Positions 1 to 60,885 of a DNA stretch of 64,000 nt are shown here, piece by piece. The translations under genes and the position numbers were made by a program. The notes below the pieces were generated by a model. It was given only the letters and a program-made list of their open reading frames with translations. It was not told the origin of the DNA and did not search any database. The stretch's first letter is position 1. Each line of letters starts with the position of its first letter. Origin of the DNA: Escherichia phage SF; the sequence record MH359124. One strand, given 5' to 3'.

Positions 1-36
1 TTTGACTATGAAAATTAACAGCAACGAACAAATTCT

Positions 37-62
37 TAAAAAGGCCCTTATGGGCCTTTTTG
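37..62 (+). terminator. Rho-independent terminator
   Basis: AAGGCCC-TTAT-GGGCCTT hairpin then TTTT; follows the upstream gene whose stop is at 16..18. Confidence 0.6.
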
Positions 63-194
63 AAACTAAAGCGGCTAAAGTGATTAAAGAGCCTGTTCAA
101 TTGTAATACTACGCTGATGCATTTCTTCATAGCGTTCTTGGAAGTATCGATGCTGAAGCTTTACGTTATATCAACATCGCTAAGAAATTCAAAT

Positions 195-219
195 AAGCTT
201 TATGAATTGAGTATATAAT
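195..219 (+). promoter_or_regulatory. Middle (MotA-dependent) promoter for gene 42
   Basis: MotA-box-like AAGCTTTA, 11-nt spacer, -10 TATAAT at about 214..219. Confidence 0.5.
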
Positions 220-237
220 AACTGTATTGAGGTAAAC

Positions 238-954
238 ATGGGAAAACATAACACAATGAAATATATTAAAGCCGCAGATTTTCAATCCGCATTTAAAGCT
301 GTCAATCGTGAAATTTTAGAAAATCCACAGTTCGTTACTGATTCTCGTATTGGACGTTGTAATGAAATTGGGTCTATGACAGTAGTTGTTGATACCCCTT
401 CATCATTCAAAATGACCGACCCACGTATTAATCGCATCTCTTATGAATATGCTGAAGATTTCTGGAAATTTATGATTTCTGGTGGTACTGATGCAGAAGA
501 AGCATTTAAGGCATATCCTAATGTCGCTAAATTTATTTCTAAACCAAAATCAGATGCTTTGCCTACGAACTTCAACACTTTCTATGGTCCTCGCATTGCG
601 GCCCAGTTACCAGCTCTTCTCAAAGAACTTAAAGAGAAACCTAATTCACGAAGAGTTGTGTTCCAAATTCTAGAAAGTTCAGATCAGGCTTTGCTTGATT
701 CAGACGAAACACTTGAATATCCATGTACTGACTCAGTGACTTATTATATTCGTGATGGTAAGCTTTATACCCACTGTCATATGCGTTCTCAGAACTGTGC
801 TGTTGTTATGCAGTTGGATTTTTATCTCCAAGGAAAATTACTTCATTATATCGCTAACGAATGTGGTGTAGAAGTTGGTGATTATACTCATACCATGGTA
901 AGTGCCCATGTGTTTGAACGTGATTTTGATTATGTTAAAGGATTCCTTGACTAA
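238..954 (+). CDS. 42: Thymidylate-synthase-family pyrimidine hydroxymethylase, probable dCMP hydroxymethylase (gene 42 position)
   Basis: 238-aa ORF; TS-fold core motifs (PCT..YYIRD..MRSQN) resemble dCMP hydroxymethylase, but N-terminal half looks diverged from T4 gp42 as remembered; synteny 42-[beta-gt locus]-uvsX; middle promoter upstream. Confidence 0.75.
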   Translation: MGKHNTMKYIKAADFQSAFKAVNREILENPQFVTDSRIGRCNEIGSMTVVVDTPSSFKMTDPRINRISYEYAEDFWKFMISGGTDAEEAFKAYPNVAKFISKPKSDALPTNFNTFYGPRIAAQLPALLKELKEKPNSRRVVFQILESSDQALLDSDETLEYPCTDSVTYYIRDGKLYTHCHMRSQNCAVVMQLDFYLQGKLLHYIANECGVEVGDYTHTMVSAHVFERDFDYVKGFLD

Positions 955-1853
955 TGGCTATTTTCCGCGTACCTATCTTGAGTATGCGGTCTTATGAAAC
1001 TGGACAGTATGCTATCCTTAAGGATGGCAACTTCCAACTTCATTTGCACCGTGCTAATCCAGGTGATGTGATTACATATCCACGTAATGCATCTGATATT
1101 AAAGAATGTGAACGTCTTTTCCCGGAATTTAAGTTTGTTCCATTATGGTATAAAGATAACGCATATAACACTCGTAAATATTTCTGGTCTGAAAATGAAT
1201 TTGTGGTTGATTCATTAATTGATTATTATGATTGTGATTTTCTAATCACAGATATCACTGGATATGACGGCACTTTTGACGTAGAATTCAATTTCAATAT
1301 CACTGCGGACCCTAATAAACCACGTTTTTATATTGACGAATTCTTAAAAACCGACATGTTGTCTGTTAATCGTTCACTTCAAACTACTGTGTTGAATGAA
1401 CGTCAAAAAGAAGTGCTGGTTAACGCAGGTGCAGATGGTAATAAGATTATCGTAACCCGGAAAGTTATACGTCCTTCCATCATGCAGCGTCTTGTAGGTG
1501 ATTTGGCTCCTATTCATCTAGATGGTATTTTTCATCCATTTCGAATTAGTGACCCGTGTTATCGTTTTGAACAAGTGGTTGAATGTGCAATTCAATTAGG
1601 TCAACCGCTTTATATAACCGATCCAAATAATAGCTTCGACAGAAATAAGTATCCTGAAGAAGCGCTGATTCGAATTTTTAATCCAACTAAAACTGAGTAC
1701 TATCAAATTCTTAAAGGACGGCCGAAGATTCAATATTTCGAAAATCCTGAAGAAGTATTCCATCCAGGTCTTGGCGAGTTCATCTACTTTAACGCTTTAA
1801 TTTCTTCACCGTATAATATACCTAAATATGAAGATGTCGTAATCGAGGAATAA
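954..1853 (+). CDS. Hypothetical protein at the beta-glucosyltransferase locus; candidate DNA-modification transferase
   Basis: 299-aa ORF starting at the stop of gene 42 (overlap ATGG); no similarity to T4 beta-gt that I can recognise; function inferred only from position. Confidence 0.5.
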   Translation: MAIFRVPILSMRSYETGQYAILKDGNFQLHLHRANPGDVITYPRNASDIKECERLFPEFKFVPLWYKDNAYNTRKYFWSENEFVVDSLIDYYDCDFLITDITGYDGTFDVEFNFNITADPNKPRFYIDEFLKTDMLSVNRSLQTTVLNERQKEVLVNAGADGNKIIVTRKVIRPSIMQRLVGDLAPIHLDGIFHPFRISDPCYRFEQVVECAIQLGQPLYITDPNNSFDRNKYPEEALIRIFNPTKTEYYQILKGRPKIQYFENPEEVFHPGLGEFIYFNALISSPYNIPKYEDVVIEE

Positions 1854-1854
1854 A

Positions 1855-2403
1855 ATGGCTAAAATTATTTTAGTAGATGGCCCGGATAATGCTGGTAAAA
1901 CAACTTTCATTAATGACATAATGGAAATTAGTGAAAGATATGTAAAGATTGATTTCCCTAAACGAACAGTTGATGGACGTTTCGACGTTAAGTCTCGAAA
2001 TGAAGTTGGCTGTTTCGAAACGATGTTGAATTATTTAGACCCTACTAAGATTTATCTGTTAGACCGTGGATATATTAGTAACTGGGTTTATGGACGTATT
2101 CGACAAGATGCGGACTCGGTTCTTGACGTTTATGAACAGGATTATGTTCGTCTTTGCCAAAACCACGATGTGTTCACAATTATTTTAACACGTAACGAAA
2201 TGACTGAAAGTTTTGAAGACGACCTTATTACTTTGTCTTCATTCGGTTTTAATACAGTAATTTCATATTTTGAAGAGTTTGCAATCCATAACGAAATCCA
2301 AACGTATCAATTACTTAATCATGATGGTGCTAACAAAGTTATAGGATTTAATGCAAGCGAACGTAATAATTTGATTACAGAAATCATCAAATGGGCTCGT
2401 TAA
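1855..2403 (+). CDS. P-loop kinase-like protein (dNMP/thymidylate-kinase-like)
   Basis: 182-aa ORF; Walker A GPDNAGKTT near N-terminus and LLDRGY motif typical of nucleotide kinases; 1 nt after previous stop. Confidence 0.55.
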   Translation: MAKIILVDGPDNAGKTTFINDIMEISERYVKIDFPKRTVDGRFDVKSRNEVGCFETMLNYLDPTKIYLLDRGYISNWVYGRIRQDADSVLDVYEQDYVRLCQNHDVFTIILTRNEMTESFEDDLITLSSFGFNTVISYFEEFAIHNEIQTYQLLNHDGANKVIGFNASERNNLITEIIKWAR

Positions 2404-2422
2404 GAGCCTGTTTAAAGTTTTT

Positions 2423-2450
2423 AAATGCTGTATAACCATTAGTATATAAT
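2423..2450 (+). promoter_or_regulatory. Middle promoter candidate for uvsX
   Basis: AAATGCTGTA box, 12-nt spacer, -10 TATAAT at about 2445..2450. Confidence 0.4.
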
Positions 2451-2503
2451 CATCTTATCTTTTAAACATGAGTAAAATATAATGATGCCTATGGAAAAAT
2501 ACA

Positions 2504-3676
2504 ATGTCTGATTTAAAATCTCGTCTGATTAAAGCTTCTACTTCTAAAATGACCGCAGACTTGACTAAGTCTAAGTTGTTTAATAATCGCGATGAAGTCC
2601 CTACTCGTATTCCGATGTTGAATATTGCATTAGGTGGTGCACTGAATGCTGGGTTGCAATCAGGCTTAACTATTTTTGCTGCTCCTTCTAAACACTTTAA
2701 AACGTTGTTTGGACTGACCATGGTTGCAGCATATATGAAGAAATATAAAGATGCAATTTGTTTGTTCTATGATTCTGAATTTGGTGCTTCAGAATCTTAT
2801 TTTCGTTCAATGGGTGTTGATTTAGACCGTGTAGTTCATACTCCGATTCAATCTGTCGAACAACTTAAAGTTGATATGACTAATCAGCTTGATGCTATCG
2901 AACGCGGTGATAAAGTTATTATCTTTATCGATTCAATCGGTAATACTGCATCTAAGAAAGAAACTGAAGATGCATTGAACGAGAAAGTCGTAGGTGATAT
3001 GTCTCGTGCTAAGGCACTTAAATCTCTTTTCCGTATTGTGACTCCTTATCTGACTATTAAAGATATTCCGTGTGTTGCAATCAACCATACAGCAATGGAA
3101 ATTGGCGGATTGTATCCTAAAGAGATTATGGGTGGTGGTACAGGTATTCTTTATTCTGCCAACACGGTATTTTTTATCTCTAAACGTCAGGTTAAAGAAG
3201 GTACAGAATTGACCGGTTATGACTTCACGTTGAAAGCAGAAAAATCTCGTACGGTTAAAGAAAAATCTACTTTCCCAATCACGGTTAATTTCGATGGTGG
3301 TATTGACCCATTCAGTGGCTTGTTAGAAATGGCAACTGAAATTGGTTTTGTAGTTAAGCCTAAAGCTGGTTGGTATGCTCGTGAATTCCTTGACGAGGAA
3401 ACAGGCGAAATGATTCGTGAAGAGAAATCATGGCGTGCTAAAGCTACTGATTGTGTAGAATTCTGGGGACCGTTGTTTAAACACAAACCTTTCCGAGATG
3501 CAATTGAAACTAAATATAAGCTAGGTGCTATCTCTTCTATTAAAGAAGTTGATGACGCTGTTAACGACCTTATTAATTGCAAAGCAACAACTAAAGTTCC
3601 GGTTAAAACTTCTGATGCTCCGTCTGCAGCAGATATAGAAAACGACCTTGACGAAATGGAAGATTTCGATGAATAA
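2504..3676 (+). CDS. uvsX: UvsX RecA-like recombinase
   Basis: 390-aa ORF; N-terminus and RecA-fold motifs match T4 UvsX from memory; correct synteny. Confidence 0.95.
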   Translation: MSDLKSRLIKASTSKMTADLTKSKLFNNRDEVPTRIPMLNIALGGALNAGLQSGLTIFAAPSKHFKTLFGLTMVAAYMKKYKDAICLFYDSEFGASESYFRSMGVDLDRVVHTPIQSVEQLKVDMTNQLDAIERGDKVIIFIDSIGNTASKKETEDALNEKVVGDMSRAKALKSLFRIVTPYLTIKDIPCVAINHTAMEIGGLYPKEIMGGGTGILYSANTVFFISKRQVKEGTELTGYDFTLKAEKSRTVKEKSTFPITVNFDGGIDPFSGLLEMATEIGFVVKPKAGWYAREFLDEETGEMIREEKSWRAKATDCVEFWGPLFKHKPFRDAIETKYKLGAISSIKEVDDAVNDLINCKATTKVPVKTSDAPSAADIENDLDEMEDFDE

Positions 3677-6554: not shown

Positions 6555-6923
6555 ATGAAAAAATTAATCGCTTTAGCAATGGTATTTGGATTAACCGGAT
6601 GTGGTGCCCATGGCTTTATCCCTAATAACGTTGGCCAACTGATTTACAATCCGAATGTTAAACAGTATGAACAACCTAAAGTTGAAGTGGAAGACCCGGT
6701 TACTGTAGGTAATCGAATGATTCAAGCTGATGCTCATGCTCAACGTTATCGTGATTCTGATACTGTGGCTGTGTCAAAAGAACAACGCGTTAAAGAACAT
6801 TGCTTACAGGCTACTGAAATCGCATTCATTCGCTATGTTGAAACAACTGGTAAAGAGCCTACCCAGAAACAAATCGCAAATAACTACGTCCAGTGTATTG
6901 AACGTTTAAACAAATTTAATTAA
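6555..6923 (+). CDS. Putative lipoprotein
   Basis: 122-aa ORF; signal peptide with lipobox LTGC; own early promoter. Confidence 0.65.
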   Translation: MKKLIALAMVFGLTGCGAHGFIPNNVGQLIYNPNVKQYEQPKVEVEDPVTVGNRMIQADAHAQRYRDSDTVAVSKEQRVKEHCLQATEIAFIRYVETTGKEPTQKQIANNYVQCIERLNKFN

Positions 6924-6926
6924 TTG

Positions 6927-6956
6927 GTTTACGCCAAAGTTAAAACAAGATATTAT
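6927..6956 (+). promoter_or_regulatory. Early promoter
   Basis: GTTTAC, 18 nt, TATTAT; drives ORF 6985. Confidence 0.55.
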
Positions 6957-6984
6957 AAACATAACAAATCAAGAGGAAATTAAC

Positions 6985-7233
6985 ATGGAATTATTCGTAG
7001 CTAGTTCAGTAGCGGTTTTAATCGCAGGTATTGGTTCAATCATCATTTACATGTTGCCTTGGGTAATCGCACTTATTCGTGGCACAAAAAGCACAACAGC
7101 AATCTTCTTTGTATCTTTACTCTTTAACTGGACGATGATTGGTTGGATTGGAACTTTAATTTGGTCTATCGTTGCCGAAAAGAAATCTGCCCAGCAGCCT
7201 CAACAAGTAATTATTATTCGCGAAAAAGAATAA
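6985..7233 (+). CDS. Small two-TM membrane protein
   Basis: 82-aa ORF, two hydrophobic helices; own promoter. Confidence 0.6.
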   Translation: MELFVASSVAVLIAGIGSIIIYMLPWVIALIRGTKSTTAIFFVSLLFNWTMIGWIGTLIWSIVAEKKSAQQPQQVIIIREKE

Positions 7234-10239: not shown

Positions 10240-10273
10240 TAACTTCTCTTATACTGAATTGAAAGGAAAAATA

Positions 10274-10795
10274 ATGGCGCACTTTAACGAATGTTCACAA
10301 CTTATTTCTGGTGTTGATAAAGCAGAAGAAGCTTATTTTAATGCTCTGATTCATGAAGATAAAGACCCATTGCAGGTAATGCTTGATATGCAGAAATCTT
10401 TACAGGTTCGTCTGGCAAATGACAAGCCTGAACATAACAAACATCCTGATGAATTGGCCACTGCTGGCGATGTTGTTGATTGGCTGCGTAATCAGAAAGA
10501 TTATATCGATGATGAATTCCGTGAACTGCTGACTTCACTTGGTGGTATGAGCAATGGTGAAAAAGCCGCTAGCTCTGTATGGAAGCCGTGGAAAGCACAA
10601 CATGCTGAATATCGAAATCGACGTATCGATGAACTGTCTCCTGAAGACCAGCTTGAAATTAAATTCGAGATGATTGATATCCTCCACTTTGTTCTGAATA
10701 TGTTCCAAGGCCTAGGTCTTTCCGCTGAAGAAATCTTTAAACTTTACTACTTGAAAAACCAACACAACTTTGAACGCCAGGATAATGGTTACTGA
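10274..10795 (+). CDS. 56: gp56 dCTPase/dUTPase (MazG-like)
   Basis: ORF track 10259..10795 (TTG); ATG 10274 gives MAHFNEC... matching the T4 gp56 N-terminus. Confidence 0.9.
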   Translation: MAHFNECSQLISGVDKAEEAYFNALIHEDKDPLQVMLDMQKSLQVRLANDKPEHNKHPDELATAGDVVDWLRNQKDYIDDEFRELLTSLGGMSNGEKAASSVWKPWKAQHAEYRNRRIDELSPEDQLEIKFEMIDILHFVLNMFQGLGLSAEEIFKLYYLKNQHNFERQDNGY

Positions 10796-11152: not shown

Positions 11153-11180
11153 ATTCTTACTTACTCAAGAGGAGAACAAT

Positions 11181-11408
11181 ATGTTAAATCGTTGGATTAA
11201 ACCTAATAACACATTAGGTGCTTTGATTGCTCAAGAAGTTTCGTTGAAATACGGTCTTGGATATTATGATGATGTAGTCGTACACTCGTTCATGATGGAT
11301 GGCGAAGACGTCAAATTTAATGCCGAAATCCGTTGGGACGATGGTGGTGTTCGTTTTGTTCGAGGAACAATTAATGCTTACGATGCTGAAGAAGTTGTTT
11401 GCTGTTAA
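11181..11408 (+). CDS. Hypothetical protein
   Basis: ATG 11181 after AGAGGAG; in-frame part of ORF 11112..11408. Confidence 0.55.
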   Translation: MLNRWIKPNNTLGALIAQEVSLKYGLGYYDDVVVHSFMMDGEDVKFNAEIRWDDGGVRFVRGTINAYDAEEVVCC

Positions 11409-11421
11409 ACCAGGCGAAGGT

Positions 11422-11622
11422 ATGATGCCTATTCCTGATACACACGAAAAAAGTTGGGAATATATCGGTGACGGAATGATGGAAGAAGTTGTTCGTCCAA
11501 AAACAAAACAGGTTAATGCTTCAAGCTCTTCAAGTTATAATCATTCATACGTATCATCTTGGCCTGGTGATTCCGGGTCAAGTTATTCTGATTGTGGTTC
11601 AAGCTCAGGGAGCTGTGAATGA
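11422..11622 (+). CDS. Hypothetical Ser-rich small protein
   Basis: In-frame ATG of ORF 11299..11622 just after the previous stop. Confidence 0.45.
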   Translation: MMPIPDTHEKSWEYIGDGMMEEVVRPKTKQVNASSSSSYNHSYVSSWPGDSGSSYSDCGSSSGSCE

Positions 11623-11798
11623 ACAGAATAGTAAAATGGTTTAAAAGCTGGAATGATGGAGTCGGACCAGAAGATTGGTTAGATGTTTTTGAAGAGAAAA
11701 TGGTCAAAGAACTCCAGAAACATGAAGAGAAGCTCGTCGAAGATGAAGGCGAACGTATTGTAAAACTTTATATGGGTGAACCATCGAGGAAATTATAA
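11619..11798 (+). CDS. Hypothetical small acidic protein (59 aa)
   Basis: Below the ORF-track cutoff; ATGA/TAATG overlaps with both neighbours typical of T4 early operons. Confidence 0.4.
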   Translation: MNRIVKWFKSWNDGVGPEDWLDVFEEKMVKELQKHEEKLVEDEGERIVKLYMGEPSRKL

Positions 11799-20578: not shown

Positions 20579-22396
20579 ATGATTAAAAATGAAATTAAGG
20601 TATTGTCAGACGTAGAACATATTAAGAAACGTAGTGGCATGTATATTGGTTCTTCGGCCAAAGAAGCCCATGAGCGTTTTTTGTTTGGTAAATATCAACA
20701 AGTTGAATATGTTCCTGGTCTGGTTAAATTAATCGATGAGATTATTGACAACTCGGTTGATGAAGCTATTCGTACATCATTTAAGTTTGCAAATAAAATT
20801 GATGTGCAAATTAAAAATAATCAAGTTTCGGTGGAAGATAACGGACGTGGTATTCCTCAAGGTTTAGTTACTGACCAAACAGGTGAACAAATTCCTGGGC
20901 CTGTAGCAGCCTGGACTATTCCAAAGGCTGGCGGTAACTTTGGTGATGACTCTGAACGTAAGACCGGTGGTATGAACGGCGTCGGGAGTAGTTTAACTAA
21001 TATCTTCTCTACGTTGTTTACAGGCATCACGTCAGATGGCGAAAATGAAATCACTGTTAACTGTTCAAACGGAATGGAAAACAAATCATGGTCTTCTAAG
21101 AAATCTAAAGGTAAAGGCACTAAAGTAATCTTCACTCCTGATTTCTCTTCATTTGAAGAGCATAATTTATCTCAAATTTATTTAGATATTACTTTAGACC
21201 GACTTCAAACATTGGCAGTCGTTTATCCTGATATCAAGTTCACATTTAATGGTAAAAAGGTTGATGGTAATTTTAAACGATTTGCTAAACAATTTGGCGA
21301 AGATAACATCATTCAAGAAAATGATAAAGTCTCTATAGCATTCACAACATCACCAGATGGCTTCCGTCATTTAACTTATGTGAATAACATCCATACTAAA
21401 AATGGCGGTCATCACGTTGAATGTGTAATGGATGATATCTGCGAACATCTTTTGCCTGGTATTAAAAAGAAATATAAGGGTATTGAAGTCACTAAAGCTC
21501 GTGTTAAAGAATGTCTCACAATGTTGATGTTTATTAGAGACATGAGCAACATGCGTTTTGATTCTCAGACTAAAGAACGTTTAACGTCAACGTATGGCGA
21601 TATTCGTAATCATATCCAATTAGATACTAAGAAAATTGCTCAGGCACTTCTTAAAAACGAAGCCTTGATTATGCCTATTGTTGAAGCAGCATTAGCTCGT
21701 AAATTGGCAGCAGAAAAAGCTGCAGAAACTAAAGCAGCTAAAAAGGCAACTAAAGCTAAGGTTCATAAGCATATTAAAGCTAACCAATGTGGTAAAGATG
21801 CAGATACGACATTGTTTTTAACAGAAGGTGATTCTGCAATTGGTTATCTCATTGATGTTCGTGACCGTGAACTACACGGCGGATTTCCATTACGTGGTAA
21901 GGTGATGAATAGCTGGGGTATGTCATATGCTGATATGATGAAGAACAAAGAGCTCTTTGATATCTGTGCTATCACAGGTCTTATTCTTGGTGAAAAGGCA
22001 GAGAATACGAACTATCGTAATATTGCAATTATGACCGATGCCGATCATGACGGTCTTGGAAGTATTTATCCGGCTTTGCTTGCTTTCTTTAGTAATTGGC
22101 CTGAATTGTTTGAACAAGGACGTATTCGCTTTGTTAAAACGCCTGTAATTATTGCACAAATTGGCAAAACTCAAAAATGGTTTTATACTGTAACTGAGTA
22201 TGAAGAAGCTAAAGATACACTGCCTAAGCATAGTATTCGATACATCAAAGGATTGGGCTCCCTTGAAAAGTCAGAATATCGTGAAATGATTCAGAACCCT
22301 GTGTACGACGTAGTTAAACTTCCTGAAAATTGGAAAGAACTCTTTGAAATGTTGTTGGGTGATGATTCAGAACTTCGTAAAGAATGGATGTCCTAA
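20579..22396 (+). CDS. 39: DNA topoisomerase II large subunit, fused gp39+gp60 equivalent (GyrB-like)
   Basis: 605-aa ORF; GHKL ATPase N-terminus and Toprim C-terminus in one reading frame (T4 splits this into 39 and 60). Confidence 0.9.
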   Translation: MIKNEIKVLSDVEHIKKRSGMYIGSSAKEAHERFLFGKYQQVEYVPGLVKLIDEIIDNSVDEAIRTSFKFANKIDVQIKNNQVSVEDNGRGIPQGLVTDQTGEQIPGPVAAWTIPKAGGNFGDDSERKTGGMNGVGSSLTNIFSTLFTGITSDGENEITVNCSNGMENKSWSSKKSKGKGTKVIFTPDFSSFEEHNLSQIYLDITLDRLQTLAVVYPDIKFTFNGKKVDGNFKRFAKQFGEDNIIQENDKVSIAFTTSPDGFRHLTYVNNIHTKNGGHHVECVMDDICEHLLPGIKKKYKGIEVTKARVKECLTMLMFIRDMSNMRFDSQTKERLTSTYGDIRNHIQLDTKKIAQALLKNEALIMPIVEAALARKLAAEKAAETKAAKKATKAKVHKHIKANQCGKDADTTLFLTEGDSAIGYLIDVRDRELHGGFPLRGKVMNSWGMSYADMMKNKELFDICAITGLILGEKAENTNYRNIAIMTDADHDGLGSIYPALLAFFSNWPELFEQGRIRFVKTPVIIAQIGKTQKWFYTVTEYEEAKDTLPKHSIRYIKGLGSLEKSEYREMIQNPVYDVVKLPENWKELFEMLLGDDSELRKEWMS

Positions 22397-22438: not shown

Positions 22439-23539
22439 ATGAAAGTTATGTTTATCCCATCTCGTGCAGTCCCATTTAATCCTGACCGTGTACAAGGTGG
22501 TCTTGAAGCAGTACATTTAAATGTGCTGAAATATTTAGTTTCTATTGGTGCCGATATTGATTATATCGGTTTTGATAATGACACGTTTGGTGACTGGAAA
22601 GTTACACACCACCCTGTTGGACATCTGACTAAATTCAGTCTAGGTATGAGTTATACTATGGCTCGTAAGATTGTTGAACTAGCCGGCATCCATGAATACG
22701 ATTTTGTTGTTACTATGGAACCGACTAAACTAACCGTTCAGGCAATTAAAGACGCAGGTCTCTCTAAAGTTCATAAGAATTTTATGGCAACACCATTTGA
22801 ACCTGTATCTCGTGGCATTGTTCAAATTTGGGACCAGACTATTCAAATTCATAAGAATGGTGGTAAGAGTTATGCTCCTACTAAAGCCTTCCGTGAATTT
22901 GAACGCAAATATTGTTATATGACTTCAGGTCTGACTGACAAAATTGATTATGATTATTGGCGAGCAAATCCGTTGTTTGAAGCCGAAGATTATCCGGTTA
23001 TTTGTTTGAATGAGAAACCTGAAGTTCTTCCTGCGACTGATCTGATTATTAGTGCACAACGTTATGACACTAAAATGCGTCGTACTGATGTTGCTCTTGA
23101 AGCGATTAAAGCACTAGGCGAAAATGGTGTAGGATACTGTCCAAGCAAATGGGCACCACCAGCTAAATATCCTGTTATTATTGATGCTCCACACAGTGAA
23201 ATCATGGAACGTCTTAAAACAGCTAAAGCACTTATTAATACGTGTCCTGACACAGGTACGGTAGAGAATAGTTCTATTGAAGCCATCTCTAAAGGTGTCC
23301 CTGTAATCCAGTTAGTTTTTAAGGATTATCCTCATGCGACATTCGAATACGACCCAGATACTGTGCGTGTAGAAATTGATTCCTCTACTCCTAAGAAAGA
23401 AGTAGTTGCGCTTTACACAAAAGCTGTATTAGAATTCACTGACACATACGAAGCTCGAGTTAAACGTGCTGAAGCAGTATGGAAGAAGTATAACCGAGAT
23501 GCAGTTGTTGCGATGTGGGATAAAATCTTCACAGCGTAA
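22439..23539 (+). CDS. GT-B-fold glycosyltransferase-like protein, candidate DNA sugar transferase
   Basis: 366-aa ORF; C-terminal ENSSIEAISKGVPVIQ resembles the GT4/GT-B donor-binding motif; sits where T4 has 60/mobA/rIIA.1. Confidence 0.55.
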   Translation: MKVMFIPSRAVPFNPDRVQGGLEAVHLNVLKYLVSIGADIDYIGFDNDTFGDWKVTHHPVGHLTKFSLGMSYTMARKIVELAGIHEYDFVVTMEPTKLTVQAIKDAGLSKVHKNFMATPFEPVSRGIVQIWDQTIQIHKNGGKSYAPTKAFREFERKYCYMTSGLTDKIDYDYWRANPLFEAEDYPVICLNEKPEVLPATDLIISAQRYDTKMRRTDVALEAIKALGENGVGYCPSKWAPPAKYPVIIDAPHSEIMERLKTAKALINTCPDTGTVENSSIEAISKGVPVIQLVFKDYPHATFEYDPDTVRVEIDSSTPKKEVVALYTKAVLEFTDTYEARVKRAEAVWKKYNRDAVVAMWDKIFTA

Positions 23540-33301: not shown

Positions 33302-33601
33302 ATGTTTACTAAAATCAAAGAAAATCCTGCCACTGAACTTGTTATTCGATGCGAAGAACTTGCAGAGCTTTATCAGGTTAACCGAGAAGTATATCGTAGC
33401 GTTGTTGCAGATATGGCAGACGAAGTATGTTCTCGTATTCCTTTTAGTGTTGATTTCAATCACATGAAGCCTGGTGAAATCACTATTGTATTTGGTTCTG
33501 ACTATACCGAAGAACGGGCTCTTAATGCCTTAGAATATGAAATGTCATTCTTCGACATACAGGACTATATTGATAGTTATAAGGAACGATATGAGCCATA
33601 A
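33302..33601 (+). CDS. Acidic protein, possibly Arn-like (anti-restriction)
   Basis: 99-aa acidic ORF at the arn-equivalent position next to asiA; identity not verified. Confidence 0.4.
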   Translation: MFTKIKENPATELVIRCEELAELYQVNREVYRSVVADMADEVCSRIPFSVDFNHMKPGEITIVFGSDYTEERALNALEYEMSFFDIQDYIDSYKERYEP

Positions 33602-33755
33602 TCTTCAGAACGTAGTAGAGGCAGAACGTGAGCGTGAGGCTTTAGTCTATAATGAACTATTAGCCACGTTCTTGGCCTTACACTCATACGAACAGGAAGA
33701 CTACACTGATTACGTTAAAAGTGTAGAAAAAGCTGTTTACAATCATCATTGTTAA
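33591..33755 (+). CDS. Hypothetical small acidic protein
   Basis: In-frame ATG of ORF 33537..33755 just before the previous stop. Confidence 0.35.
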   Translation: MSHNLQNVVEAEREREALVYNELLATFLALHSYEQEDYTDYVKSVEKAVYNHHC

Positions 33756-48439: not shown

Positions 48440-49622
<1,183 letters not shown>

Positions 49623-49637
49623 TTATATAGGTGTTAA

Positions 49638-50498
49638 ATGAAACAATATCAAGATTTGATTAAAGATATCTTAGAAAATGGCTATGAAACAGACGACCGT
49701 ACAGGTACCGGCACTATTGCTCTATTCGGAACTAAATTGCGATGGGACCTTACTAAAGGATTTCCTGCAGTAACAACCAAGAAGCTTGCATGGAAAGCTT
49801 GTATTGCCGAGCTATTATGGTTCATGTCTGGTTCTACCAATGTTAATGATTTGCGTATTCGTACTCATGGTAGTCTTATTCAAGGTAAAACTATTTGGGA
49901 CGACAACTATGAAAATCAGGCAAAAGACCTTGGATATCATAGCGGCGAACTTGGTCCTATTTATGGTAAGCAATGGCGTGATTTTGGTGGTGTAGACCAA
50001 TTGGTCAAAACTATTGACCGTATTAAAGCTCTTCCTAATGATCGTCGTCAAATAGTTTCTGCATGGAACCCGGCCGAAATTGACCAAATGGCTCTTCCTC
50101 CTTGTCATATGTTCTATCAATTTAACGTGCGTAATGGGCATCTTGATTTACAATGGTATCAACGCAGTGTAGATGTTTTCTTGGGTCTGCCATTCAACAT
50201 TGCCTCGTACGCTGCCTTGACACATATTGTAGCGAAGATGTGTAACCTTATCCCAGGTGATTTAGTGTTCTCAGGCGGCAACACGCATATCTACAGCAAT
50301 CATGTAGAACAATGCAAAGAAGTTCTTCGTCGTGAACCTAAAGAGTTGTGTTCTCTTGAAATTAATTGGCCTAGTAATTTTGAGAATTGGCCTACAAAAA
50401 TCCAAATGGACTGGGTTACTGGAACGATGACACATTCTGATTTCGTTCTTAAAAATTACGAATCTCATCCAACTATCAAAGCTAAAATGGCGGTATAA
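49638..50498 (+). CDS. td: Thymidylate synthase (intronless)
   Basis: 286-aa uninterrupted ORF near-identical to spliced T4 Td; PPCH active site. Confidence 0.95.
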   Translation: MKQYQDLIKDILENGYETDDRTGTGTIALFGTKLRWDLTKGFPAVTTKKLAWKACIAELLWFMSGSTNVNDLRIRTHGSLIQGKTIWDDNYENQAKDLGYHSGELGPIYGKQWRDFGGVDQLVKTIDRIKALPNDRRQIVSAWNPAEIDQMALPPCHMFYQFNVRNGHLDLQWYQRSVDVFLGLPFNIASYAALTHIVAKMCNLIPGDLVFSGGNTHIYSNHVEQCKEVLRREPKELCSLEINWPSNFENWPTKIQMDWVTGTMTHSDFVLKNYESHPTIKAKMAV

Positions 50499-53149: not shown

Positions 53150-54328
53150 ATGAGTACAGTTTTTAACACACAACAAGTCGATGTTTTGAATGAACCGATG
53201 TTCTTTGGTTCTGGTCTTGGTCTCGCACGTTACGATATTCAGCGTCATAAAGTTTTTGAAGAACTTATAGAAAAATCCTTGTCATTTTTCTGGCGCCCTG
53301 AAGAGGTAAACTTGATGTTGGACTCTGCGCAGTTCAATAAGCTTCCTCAGTTCCAACAGGACATCTTTACAAACAATCTTAAGTATCAATCATTATTGGA
53401 TTCTATCCAAGGCAGGGCCCCATCTGCGGTACTTATGGCACTGATTTCTGACCCTTCATTAGATACATGGGTTGCAACATGGACATTCAGTGAAACTATT
53501 CACTCTCGTTCGTATACTCATATTATGCGAAATCTTTATACAGACCCATCTAAGGTATTTGATGAAATTGTATTAGACGAAGCAATCATGAAACGAGCTG
53601 AATCAATAGGTAAATATTACGATGATGTTCTAGTCAAGACTCGTCATTGGGAAAACCAGAAAGAATTCACGGAACTAGCCAAAGCGTCAATTGGTGCAGA
53701 CCTTCAATTAAAACGTGCTATTAAGCAAGAAGCCGCTGCTAAGCGTGATTTAATGAAGTCTCTTTATCTCTGTTTGCATGTTATCAACGCCTTAGAAGCT
53801 ATTCGTTTTTACGTATCATTTGCATGTACTTTCAACTTCCATAAAAATATGGAAATTATGGAAGGTAATGCAAAGATTATGAAGTTCATTGCTCGTGACG
53901 AACAACTCCACCTCAAGGGTACTCAGTACATTATCCGTCAACTTCAATCTGGTACTGATGGTGATGAGTGGGTTCAAATTGCTAAAGAATGTGAACAAGA
54001 AGCAGTTGACATTTTTATGGAAGTAAATAGTCAAGAGAAGGAATGGGCTGCACACCTCTTTAAAGATGGTACATGTCCAGGTATCAATACGCAGAGTATG
54101 TGTGCTTTTGTTGATTACTTGACTGTGTCTCGTATGAAACAGTGTGGTTTGCCATGCCCAATCACTGATGCTCCGACCAAGCATCCGTATCCTTGGATTC
54201 GTGAATATCTGAACTCTGATTTAGTTCAAGCAGCTCCTCAGGAAGTTGAAATCAGTTCTTATCTTGTCGCACAAATTGATAATGATGTAGACCAAAATGT
54301 AATCAATTCATACAAAAAATATTTCTAA
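53150..54328 (+). CDS. nrdB: Ribonucleotide reductase small subunit NrdB (intronless)
   Basis: 392-aa uninterrupted ORF with di-iron ligand pattern. Confidence 0.95.
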   Translation: MSTVFNTQQVDVLNEPMFFGSGLGLARYDIQRHKVFEELIEKSLSFFWRPEEVNLMLDSAQFNKLPQFQQDIFTNNLKYQSLLDSIQGRAPSAVLMALISDPSLDTWVATWTFSETIHSRSYTHIMRNLYTDPSKVFDEIVLDEAIMKRAESIGKYYDDVLVKTRHWENQKEFTELAKASIGADLQLKRAIKQEAAAKRDLMKSLYLCLHVINALEAIRFYVSFACTFNFHKNMEIMEGNAKIMKFIARDEQLHLKGTQYIIRQLQSGTDGDEWVQIAKECEQEAVDIFMEVNSQEKEWAAHLFKDGTCPGINTQSMCAFVDYLTVSRMKQCGLPCPITDAPTKHPYPWIREYLNSDLVQAAPQEVEISSYLVAQIDNDVDQNVINSYKKYF

Positions 54329-59892: not shown

Positions 59893-60885
59893 ATGTTACC
59901 TGTCGTCAGAAAACTTATTTCTCCAAAAGAACTGGCTGAGATTATTCCTTTGTCGGAAGCTTACGCATCACAAGTGGCTTCTCATCGCGAACAAGTTAAT
60001 TCGATTATGAACGGTGAAGACCCACGCAAACTTATTGTTGTAGGTCCTTGTTCAATTCATGACCCTATTGCTGCTGTTGAATACGGCAAACGTCTGGCTG
60101 AACTTCAAACTCGTCTTCCTAATGTTCTGTTAGTGATGCGCGTTTATTTTGAAAAGCCTCGAACTACCGTAGGTTGGAAAGGTCTTGTAAATGATCCATA
60201 TCTTGACGGAAGTTTTGATATGAACCACGGTCTTATAGTTGCACGAACATTGTGTCGTAAACTTCTACGTATGGGACTTCCATTAGCAACTGAAGTATTA
60301 GACCCATTCACGATTAAGTATCTTTCTGGTATTTTCTCATGGGTTGCTATTGGCGCCCGTACGACTGAAAGTCAGACACATCGTGAAATTGCTTCAGGTC
60401 TACCGATGTGCGTAGGCTTCAAGAACGCAACCAATGGTTCTATTAAAGTAGCTACAGACGCGATGTATAGTGCCGCCTGGCCTCATCGGTATATGGGTAT
60501 GGACGTCGATGGTACTGTAGGCATTGTTGAAGCTGAAGGTAATCAGAATACGCATATCGTATTGCGTGGCGGGACTAACGGCCCGAACTATCATTCTTCT
60601 GATATTCAAGAAGCTTCTAACAAAGCAAGTGCATTAGGTCTGAATCATTATGTAATGGTTGACTGTAGCCATGCAAACGCTGATGGGTATTATAGCAATC
60701 AAATTGGTATTGGTAAAAATTTAGCAGCTAATGATTTGGTCAAAGGAATTATGATAGAATCATTCCTACATGAAGGAAATCAAAAAATTTCTGATAATAT
60801 GTCCTATGGCGTTTCCATTACCGATGCGTGCATCAGTTGGGAACAAACTAAAGAGCTGTTAACTTATATTAATAAGGTTCAATAA
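59893..60885 (+). CDS. 3-deoxy-D-arabino-heptulosonate-7-phosphate (DAHP) synthase, class I (AroG/AroF-like)
   Basis: 330-aa ORF; long collinear matches to E. coli AroG from memory (VVGPCSIHDP..A..EY, VMRVYFEKPRTTVGWKGL.NDP, GARTTESQ.HRE.ASGL, HI.LRGG, SITDACI.WE); SD AAGGA. Confidence 0.85.
   Translation: MLPVVRKLISPKELAEIIPLSEAYASQVASHREQVNSIMNGEDPRKLIVVGPCSIHDPIAAVEYGKRLAELQTRLPNVLLVMRVYFEKPRTTVGWKGLVNDPYLDGSFDMNHGLIVARTLCRKLLRMGLPLATEVLDPFTIKYLSGIFSWVAIGARTTESQTHREIASGLPMCVGFKNATNGSIKVATDAMYSAAWPHRYMGMDVDGTVGIVEAEGNQNTHIVLRGGTNGPNYHSSDIQEASNKASALGLNHYVMVDCSHANADGYYSNQIGIGKNLAANDLVKGIMIESFLHEGNQKISDNMSYGVSITDACISWEQTKELLTYINKVQ

Follow-up and report, generated by a model that had tools for sequence, protein, structure and literature searches.

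A probable 5-hydroxy-dCMP synthase of the Mosigvirus arabinosylation pathway in the gene 42 interval of Escherichia phage SF

T4 gp42, an enzyme of the thymidylate synthase (TS) fold, uses methylene-tetrahydrofolate to add a 5-CH2OH group and works with glucosyltransferase partners, whereas the RB69 type of enzyme uses flavin and O2, adds a 5-OH group and is associated with arabinosyltransferases. RB69 gp48 and its counterpart from Acinetobacter phage DLP3 convert dCMP to 5-hydroxy-dCMP (5hodCMP) (Lee et al., NAR 2026, PMC13326640). In the same work 18O2 labelling traced the hydroxyl oxygen to O2, RB69 gp48 made 5hodC in E. coli and co-purified with FMN, and 5hodCMP was described as the anchor for arabinosylation of cytosine (PMC13326640). 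For the enzyme of phage HY126, a flavin-containing crystal structure and in vitro reconstitution are described (He et al., Nat Chem Biol 2026, as related in PMC13326640). NMR and MS of RB69 DNA found a 5-hydroxy, not a 5-hydroxymethyl, group. Thomas et al. 2018 had taken the RB69 gene to encode a dCMP hydroxymethylase. The gene described below is already explained by this work, published in 2025-2026, and both the enzyme and the modification are known biology.

We analysed a stretch of 64,000 nucleotides from Escherichia phage SF (MH359124), hereafter the window. Over its first 4 kb the DNA shared 97-98% identity with some 150 genomes of Mosigvirus (RB69-like) phages, PNJ-6, PHB12, F2 and HY126 among them, and the window comes from an RB69-like (Mosigvirus) phage. 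The following features bear on the modification of cytosine.

238..954, + strand: probable TS-fold, flavin- and O2-dependent dCMP C5-hydroxylase (5-hydroxy-dCMP synthase; RB69 gp48 orthologue), from the PF00303 match, identity to RB69 and PDB proteins, and diagnostic residues
954..1853, + strand: predicted DNA arabinosyltransferase 1 (Aat1; RB69 gp46:47 orthologue), a single intact ORF of 299 aa, from identity to RB69
1855..2403, + strand: thymidylate-kinase-like P-loop nucleotide kinase (RB69 gp45 orthologue), 182 aa, 98.9% identical to RB69 gp45; phrog_761 'thymidylate kinase'
2389..2413, + strand: terminator-like hairpin with a 10-pair stem that closes the three-gene unit ahead of uvsX, from a consensus-only scan whose total number of sites was about that in shuffled sequence
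10259..10795, + strand: dCTPase (homologue of T4 gp56 and RB69p028), which removes dCTP and supplies dCMP, 71.9% identical to T4 gp56
22439..23539, + strand: predicted DNA arabinosyltransferase 2 (RB69p003 orthologue), between gene 39 and rIIA.1, 99.2% identical over 366 aa

The first of these is an intact ORF of 238 aa on the + strand, preceded by a GAGG ribosome-binding site at 229-232, 5 bases 5' of the ATG, and translationally coupled to the next gene, as its TAA stop overlaps the ATG at 954. A promoter scan of positions 1..2600 found no excess of sigma-70-like sites over shuffles; a candidate middle promoter at about 197-220 is possible. In the 12 near-identical records that we inspected, out of about 150 such records, the protein was conserved at 97.5-99.6%. 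It shared 98.7% identity with RB69 gp48, and 236 of its 238 residues matched the HY126 enzyme in PDB entries 9iqc, 9ir2 and 9iqu, the exceptions being E87K and T110A. Relative to these two characterised enzymes (98.7-99.2% identity) the window protein is of equal length, carries the matching diagnostic residues and differs by only 2-3 conservative substitutions (S17T, Q31E, E87K, T110A). None of the positions concerned, S17, Q31, E87 and T110, is among the active-site positions that the literature gives. The neighbours match as well, with the U32-family gene and gp49 upstream and Aat1 and the kinase downstream. Judged from the sequences, a functional difference from the RB69 and HY126 enzymes would not be expected.

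For comparison with T4, the T4 reference genome was fetched and every window ORF was compared with the T4 ORFs. ORF 238..954 shared 24.8% identity with T4 gp42 over 218 aa (BLASTP). This was the lowest value among the 49 window ORFs with a T4 homologue (non-overlapping, at least 100 aa, T4 homologue at 70% coverage or more), for which the median was 68.3%, and the divergence lies far outside the background for this pair of genomes. The original prediction, that the hydroxymethylase gene is far more diverged from T4 than its neighbours, is borne out by the alignment with the T4 reference sequence, in which identity to gp42 falls far short of 70%. The neighbours themselves had been placed at 80-90% identity; this fits gp41 (85%), gp32 (90%) and td (90%), but uvsX (68%) and the holin (72%) fall below this range and gp31 (96%) above it. 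The remaining values were 74% for gp61, 79% for both dda and gp39, 88% for gp52 and 87% for nrdA. By halves, the identity to gp42 was 20% in the N-terminal and 30% in the C-terminal part. The N-terminal half is therefore the more diverged, as had been supposed, but it is not unrelated to the family. The PF00303 (Thymidylat_synt) match (56.9 bits, cut-off 24.3) covers residues 122-235 only, and three further alignments run across both halves: the short archaeal TS model TIGR03283 over residues 9-233, MilA (PDB 5b6d) over 14-237 and phrog_160 over 2-237. The N-terminal half is, on these alignments, homologous to the TS family.

A gene this diverged could still be a fast-evolving true orthologue of T4 gp42 that makes 5-hydroxymethyl-dCMP, an assumption that goes back to the first description of RB69 DNA as arabinosyl-hmC. 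The fold, the genomic interval, the phrog_160 assignment and the Cys/Asp pair described below all agree with such an origin, and besides Thomas et al. 2018 several GenBank records say dCMP hydroxymethylase. An identity of 24.8%, against a median of 68% for the shared genes, speaks against it, and so do the residues of the folate site. We aligned the window protein with RB69 gp48, T4 gp42, the td product of the window and E. coli ThyA. The catalytic cysteine is Cys163 (in EYPC), at ThyA C146; Glu160 stands at ThyA L143, and Asp194 at ThyA N177, where it indicates dCMP rather than dUMP. Asn186 (in MRSQN) occupies the position of ThyA D169, Ala97 replaces the folate-site Trp80, and Phe226 replaces Tyr209. 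T4 gp42 resembles the window protein in its TS fold, catalytic Cys, Asp at N177 and acidic residue at L143, and its gene lies in the same interval, from gene 43 to uvsX. In the same alignment, however, gp42 retains Asp169 and Trp80, the two folate-site residues that the window enzyme has exchanged for Asn and Ala. The MRSQN and EYPC motifs were present in all 18 homologues retrieved from IMG/VR. All 5hodCMP producers tested so far share, as their signature, an Asn in place of ThyA Asp169 (PMC13326640), and in our alignment this single column separates the hydroxylase from gp42.

A hydroxymethylating gp42 orthologue is contradicted by published nucleoside chemistry: 5-hydroxy was the group seen by NMR and MS in the DNA of RB69, and also in assays of the 99%-identical enzyme in vivo. 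We regard such an orthologue as very improbable. The label of the original prediction, gene 42 hydroxymethylase, accordingly has to be abandoned: enzymes almost identical to this one depend on flavin and O2 and yield 5-hydroxy-dCMP, whereas a hydroxymethylase would use folate and yield 5-hydroxymethyl-dCMP (PMC13326640). Its further suggestion of an altered substrate or altered partners survives in part. The partners have changed, but the substrate, to go by the Asp at N177, is still dCMP; what differs is the group added and the cofactor. Among solved non-phage proteins the closest full-length relative is the CMP 5-hydroxymethylase MilA (5b6d/5jnh; 47.5 bits over the residues given above), which has the same short TS-like scaffold and also acts on a cytosine nucleotide, whereas it is folate-dependent, takes the ribonucleotide CMP and yields a hydroxymethyl product.

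Many records call the gene a thymidylate synthase, and it might accordingly be a second such enzyme or a dUMP-modifying one of the 5-hydroxymethyl-dUMP type. The best NCBIfam matches were indeed TS equivalogs, but all of them were under cut-off (top match 69.7 bits, 174.6 required). The fold, the phosphate-binding Arg pair (R138/R139, R183) and the catalytic Cys are common to the window protein and to ThyA and T4 td; identity is 20-21%, however, Asn177 has become the cytosine-selecting Asp, and reductive methylation is not part of the reaction. The window already has a separate, intact and bona fide td at 49638..50498, whose aligned exon-1 segment of 183 aa is 90% identical to T4 td, and frd at 48691..49278. 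We therefore consider a second thymidylate synthase or dUMP-modifying enzyme hardly credible. An artefact, whether a wrong T4 gp42 sequence in the comparison or a pseudogene, was rejected as equally hard to credit, since the T4 reference alignment confirms the low identity and the ORF is intact, conserved and translationally coupled.

The genes around the hydroxylase differ from those of T4 as well. In T4 the interval between gene 43 and uvsX holds imm.1-imm-42-beta-gt-segA. In RB69 and the closest relatives of the window it holds the genes for arabinose-5-P isomerase, UDP-arabinose synthesis, the U32 protein, gp49, the TS-like enzyme, arabinosyltransferase 1 and the kinase. In all close relatives the genes upstream of window position 1 encode arabinose-5-P isomerase, a bifunctional kinase/uridylyltransferase, a phosphatase and the U32-family protein. 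No T4 homologue was found for the partner genes of this module; the window contains no beta-gt homologue, and the gene next to 238..954 has no T4 match. The synteny between the DNA polymerase gene and uvsX thus supports the view, put forward in the original prediction, that the modification module was replaced as a unit. Homologues of T4 imm.1 (33% identity) and imm (65%) were located at 6555..7233 (+), between dmd and sp rather than at the gene 42 position, and the T4 interval has therefore been rearranged as well as replaced.

The product of 954..1853 (phrog_3891) gave no Pfam match and no T4 homologue; it shared 97% identity with RB69 gp47 over residues 1-181 and 99% with gp46 over residues 184-299. 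Its role as arabinosyltransferase 1 was assigned from structure models (PMC13326640). The gene is intact here and split into gp47 and gp46 in the RB69 reference, which agrees with the published attribution of that split to an error in sequencing (PMC13326640). The product of 22439..23539 (phrog_8302), also without a T4 homologue, corresponds to RB69p003, the beta-arabinosyltransferase 2, and the dCTPase is likewise listed as a pathway member (PMC13326640). The kinase-like gene at 1855..2403 was found in every cluster examined, and its product is a putative member of the pathway.

Taken together, ORF 238..954 is most probably the Mosigvirus 5-hydroxy-dCMP synthase of the arabinosylation pathway, to which we assign a probability of roughly 95%; identity, residues and synteny were observed here, and the enzymology and DNA chemistry come from literature on 99%-identical proteins. 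A TS fold that has kept the catalytic Cys and the cytosine-selecting Asp and has lost the folate-site Asp169 and Trp80 would bind FMN and, with O2, hydroxylate C5 of dCMP to give 5hodCMP. The dCMP would be supplied by the phage dCTPase. A phage dNMP kinase encoded outside the window would, together with host enzymes, convert 5hodCMP to 5hodCTP, which the phage polymerase would incorporate instead of dCTP. The arabinosyltransferases of 954..1853 and 22439..23539 would then add arabinofuranose from UDP-arabinose to the 5-hydroxyl on the DNA, and the arabinosylated DNA would be protected from DNA-targeting defences. We infer that the DNA of phage SF contains arabinosyl-5-hydroxycytosine.

Several further differences from T4 were seen in the window. 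At the position of T4 arn/asiA.1 there are two ORFs (33302..33755, +; 99 and 72 aa) without a T4 homologue. Arn inhibits McrBC, which attacks hmC DNA, and the absence of arn would fit a phage without hmC. Both td (49638..50498, +, 286 aa) and nrdB (53150..54328, +, 392 aa) are continuous ORFs and are therefore without the T4 group I introns and homing endonucleases. At 605 aa, the product of gene 39 (20579..22396) exceeds T4 gp39 in length, which would fit a 39+60 topoisomerase subunit that is not split.

The gene cluster led to a second enzyme candidate. Adjoining the hydroxylase gene, upstream of window position 1, relatives carry a U32-family ('peptidase') gene, gp50 in RB69. The U32 proteins RlhA (5-hydroxycytidine in 23S rRNA), TrhP (5-hydroxyuridine in tRNA) and UbiU/UbiV act in O2-independent hydroxylations that need prephenate, which is the oxygen donor for ubiquinone, and in vitro hydroxylation by a U32 protein has yet to be demonstrated (PMC5727448, PMC6599085, PMC10990095; the last for the in vitro statement). 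The phage protein has been given the labels 'peptidase', 'UDP-arabinose enzyme' and 'sugar or heterocycle reductase'; the last is its only listing in PMC13326640, where chorismate, prephenate and DAHP are never mentioned. We found no link between U32 proteins or prephenate and phage 5hoC in the literature searched, a scope that left out He et al. 2026 and Mahler et al. 2025. The genes concerned are as follows.

RB69 L004:8493-9662, PNJ-6 L008:5800-6960 and LC53 L006:6494-7663: U32-family gene
LC53 L006:7660-8004, Entb_45 L016:5783-6022, and 13 of 15 IMG/VR loci (L017-L031) at about 11160-11680: type II chorismate mutase (PF01817)
Window 59893..60885, + strand: full-length AroFGH-type DAHP synthase (PF00793, 250 bits; NF009395, 454 bits, over cut-off)
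Window 1..196, + strand: 3' part of the gp49 homologue, a small ORF between the U32 and hydroxylase genes with an in-frame TAA at 104..106, from the RB69 gp49 translation and a DNA alignment with five relatives

The match of gp50 to PF01136 scored 42.2 bits (cut-off 22.4; residues 94-286), comparable to UbiV at 38.3 bits. Like RlhA, TrhP and UbiU/UbiV, gp50 is rich in cysteines, and all 13 of them were invariant in 15 of 15 homologues, including the C-terminal cluster C340-X4-C-X3-C-X2-C352. It differs from these proteins in its low identity to them (16-21%), in aligning with only two of the four canonical U32 Fe-S cysteines (the first and third, at C192 and C209), and in the extra C-terminal CX4CX3CX2C. 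A sequence search of the PDB with gp50 returned no matches. Pairwise identity within gp50 was 81-100%, and across genera it was the best conserved protein of the cluster, at 83-89%; the hydroxylase reached 73-82% and Aat1 51-71%. A tblastn search for gp50 matched 220 phage records, none of them below 80% identity. In the tallies of top organisms and 60 sampled records, the hosts were Enterobacterales, with one Shewanella phage in addition and no Acinetobacter phage among them.

A chorismate mutase gene adjoins gp50 in most genera. It lies between the U32 and hydroxylase genes in Serratia phage LC53 (44.6 bits) and Enterobacter phage Entb_45 (40.9 bits). Among 18 hydroxylase loci from IMG/VR, 11 were U32-positive and 7 were U32-less (4 Dhakavirus-like, 3 Acinetobacter-phage-like); chorismate mutase was present in 10 of the 11 and in none of the 7 (Fisher one-sided p = 2.5e-4, kinship ignored). 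DAHP synthase occurred only in U32-positive T4-like IMG/VR contigs (8/8 versus 0/7 U32-less, p = 0.02), and may be an accessory gene that, acting at an earlier step of the shikimate pathway, feeds prephenate to the U32 protein. It replaces T4 cd.1 between cd.2 and cd, and U32-positive Yersinia phages appear to be without it. In Mosigvirus, including the phage of the window, U32 and DAHP synthase are present and chorismate mutase is missing, so that on the prephenate reading host PheA/TyrA would be needed.

This co-occurrence of U32, chorismate mutase and DAHP synthase suggests, by analogy and tentatively, that gp50 could be a prephenate-dependent, O2-independent cytosine C5-hydroxylase, an anaerobic second route beside the 238..954 enzyme for which chorismate mutase and DAHP synthase would boost prephenate; the odds are somewhat against it. 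RlhA makes 5-hydroxycytosine in rRNA, and pairings of an aerobic with an anaerobic enzyme have parallels in TrhO/TrhP, UbiIHF/UbiUV and T4 NrdAB/NrdDG. The idea that U32 occurs only in phages of facultative anaerobes and is absent only in those of aerobes holds in part: Acinetobacter phages are without it, but the gene is also missing from the clusters of E. coli Dhakaviruses.

At the left end of the window, the gp49 homologue carries its TAA at 104..106 where RB69 has GAA. PNJ-6/PHB12 and HY126 have different one-base insertions in gp49, and the gene is intact in RB69 and Bas47. Either these disruptions arose independently, which would suggest a dispensable gp49, or sequencing errors are present in some of the records. 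We also considered gp49 as a decayed chorismate mutase and rejected this, as it showed no similarity to the LC53 and Entb_45 enzymes and no Pfam match, and four loci carry both genes side by side.

Existing annotation does not bring out the identity of the hydroxylase. PHROGs places both ORF 238..954 and T4 gp42 in phrog_160 'thymidylate synthase', neither protein reaches the cut-off of any NCBIfam model, and automated annotation thus cannot separate hydroxylase, hydroxymethylase and TS; GenBank labels for the hydroxylase include thymidylate synthase, dCMP hydroxymethylase and hypothetical. The value of the identification lies in correct annotation, as the hydroxylase gene marks phages with arabinosylated 5-hydroxycytosine, a modification on which sensitivity to restriction, CRISPR and type IV systems depends and which affects sequencing and choices in phage therapy. 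The side lead on the U32 gene would matter more than the hydroxylase identification. If true, it would offer a tractable system, in which the U32 protein is compact, its substrate is likely to be a small molecule or DNA, and the chorismate mutase is encoded in the same operon. It would also account for the persistence, in the anoxic gut, of a DNA modification that requires O2.
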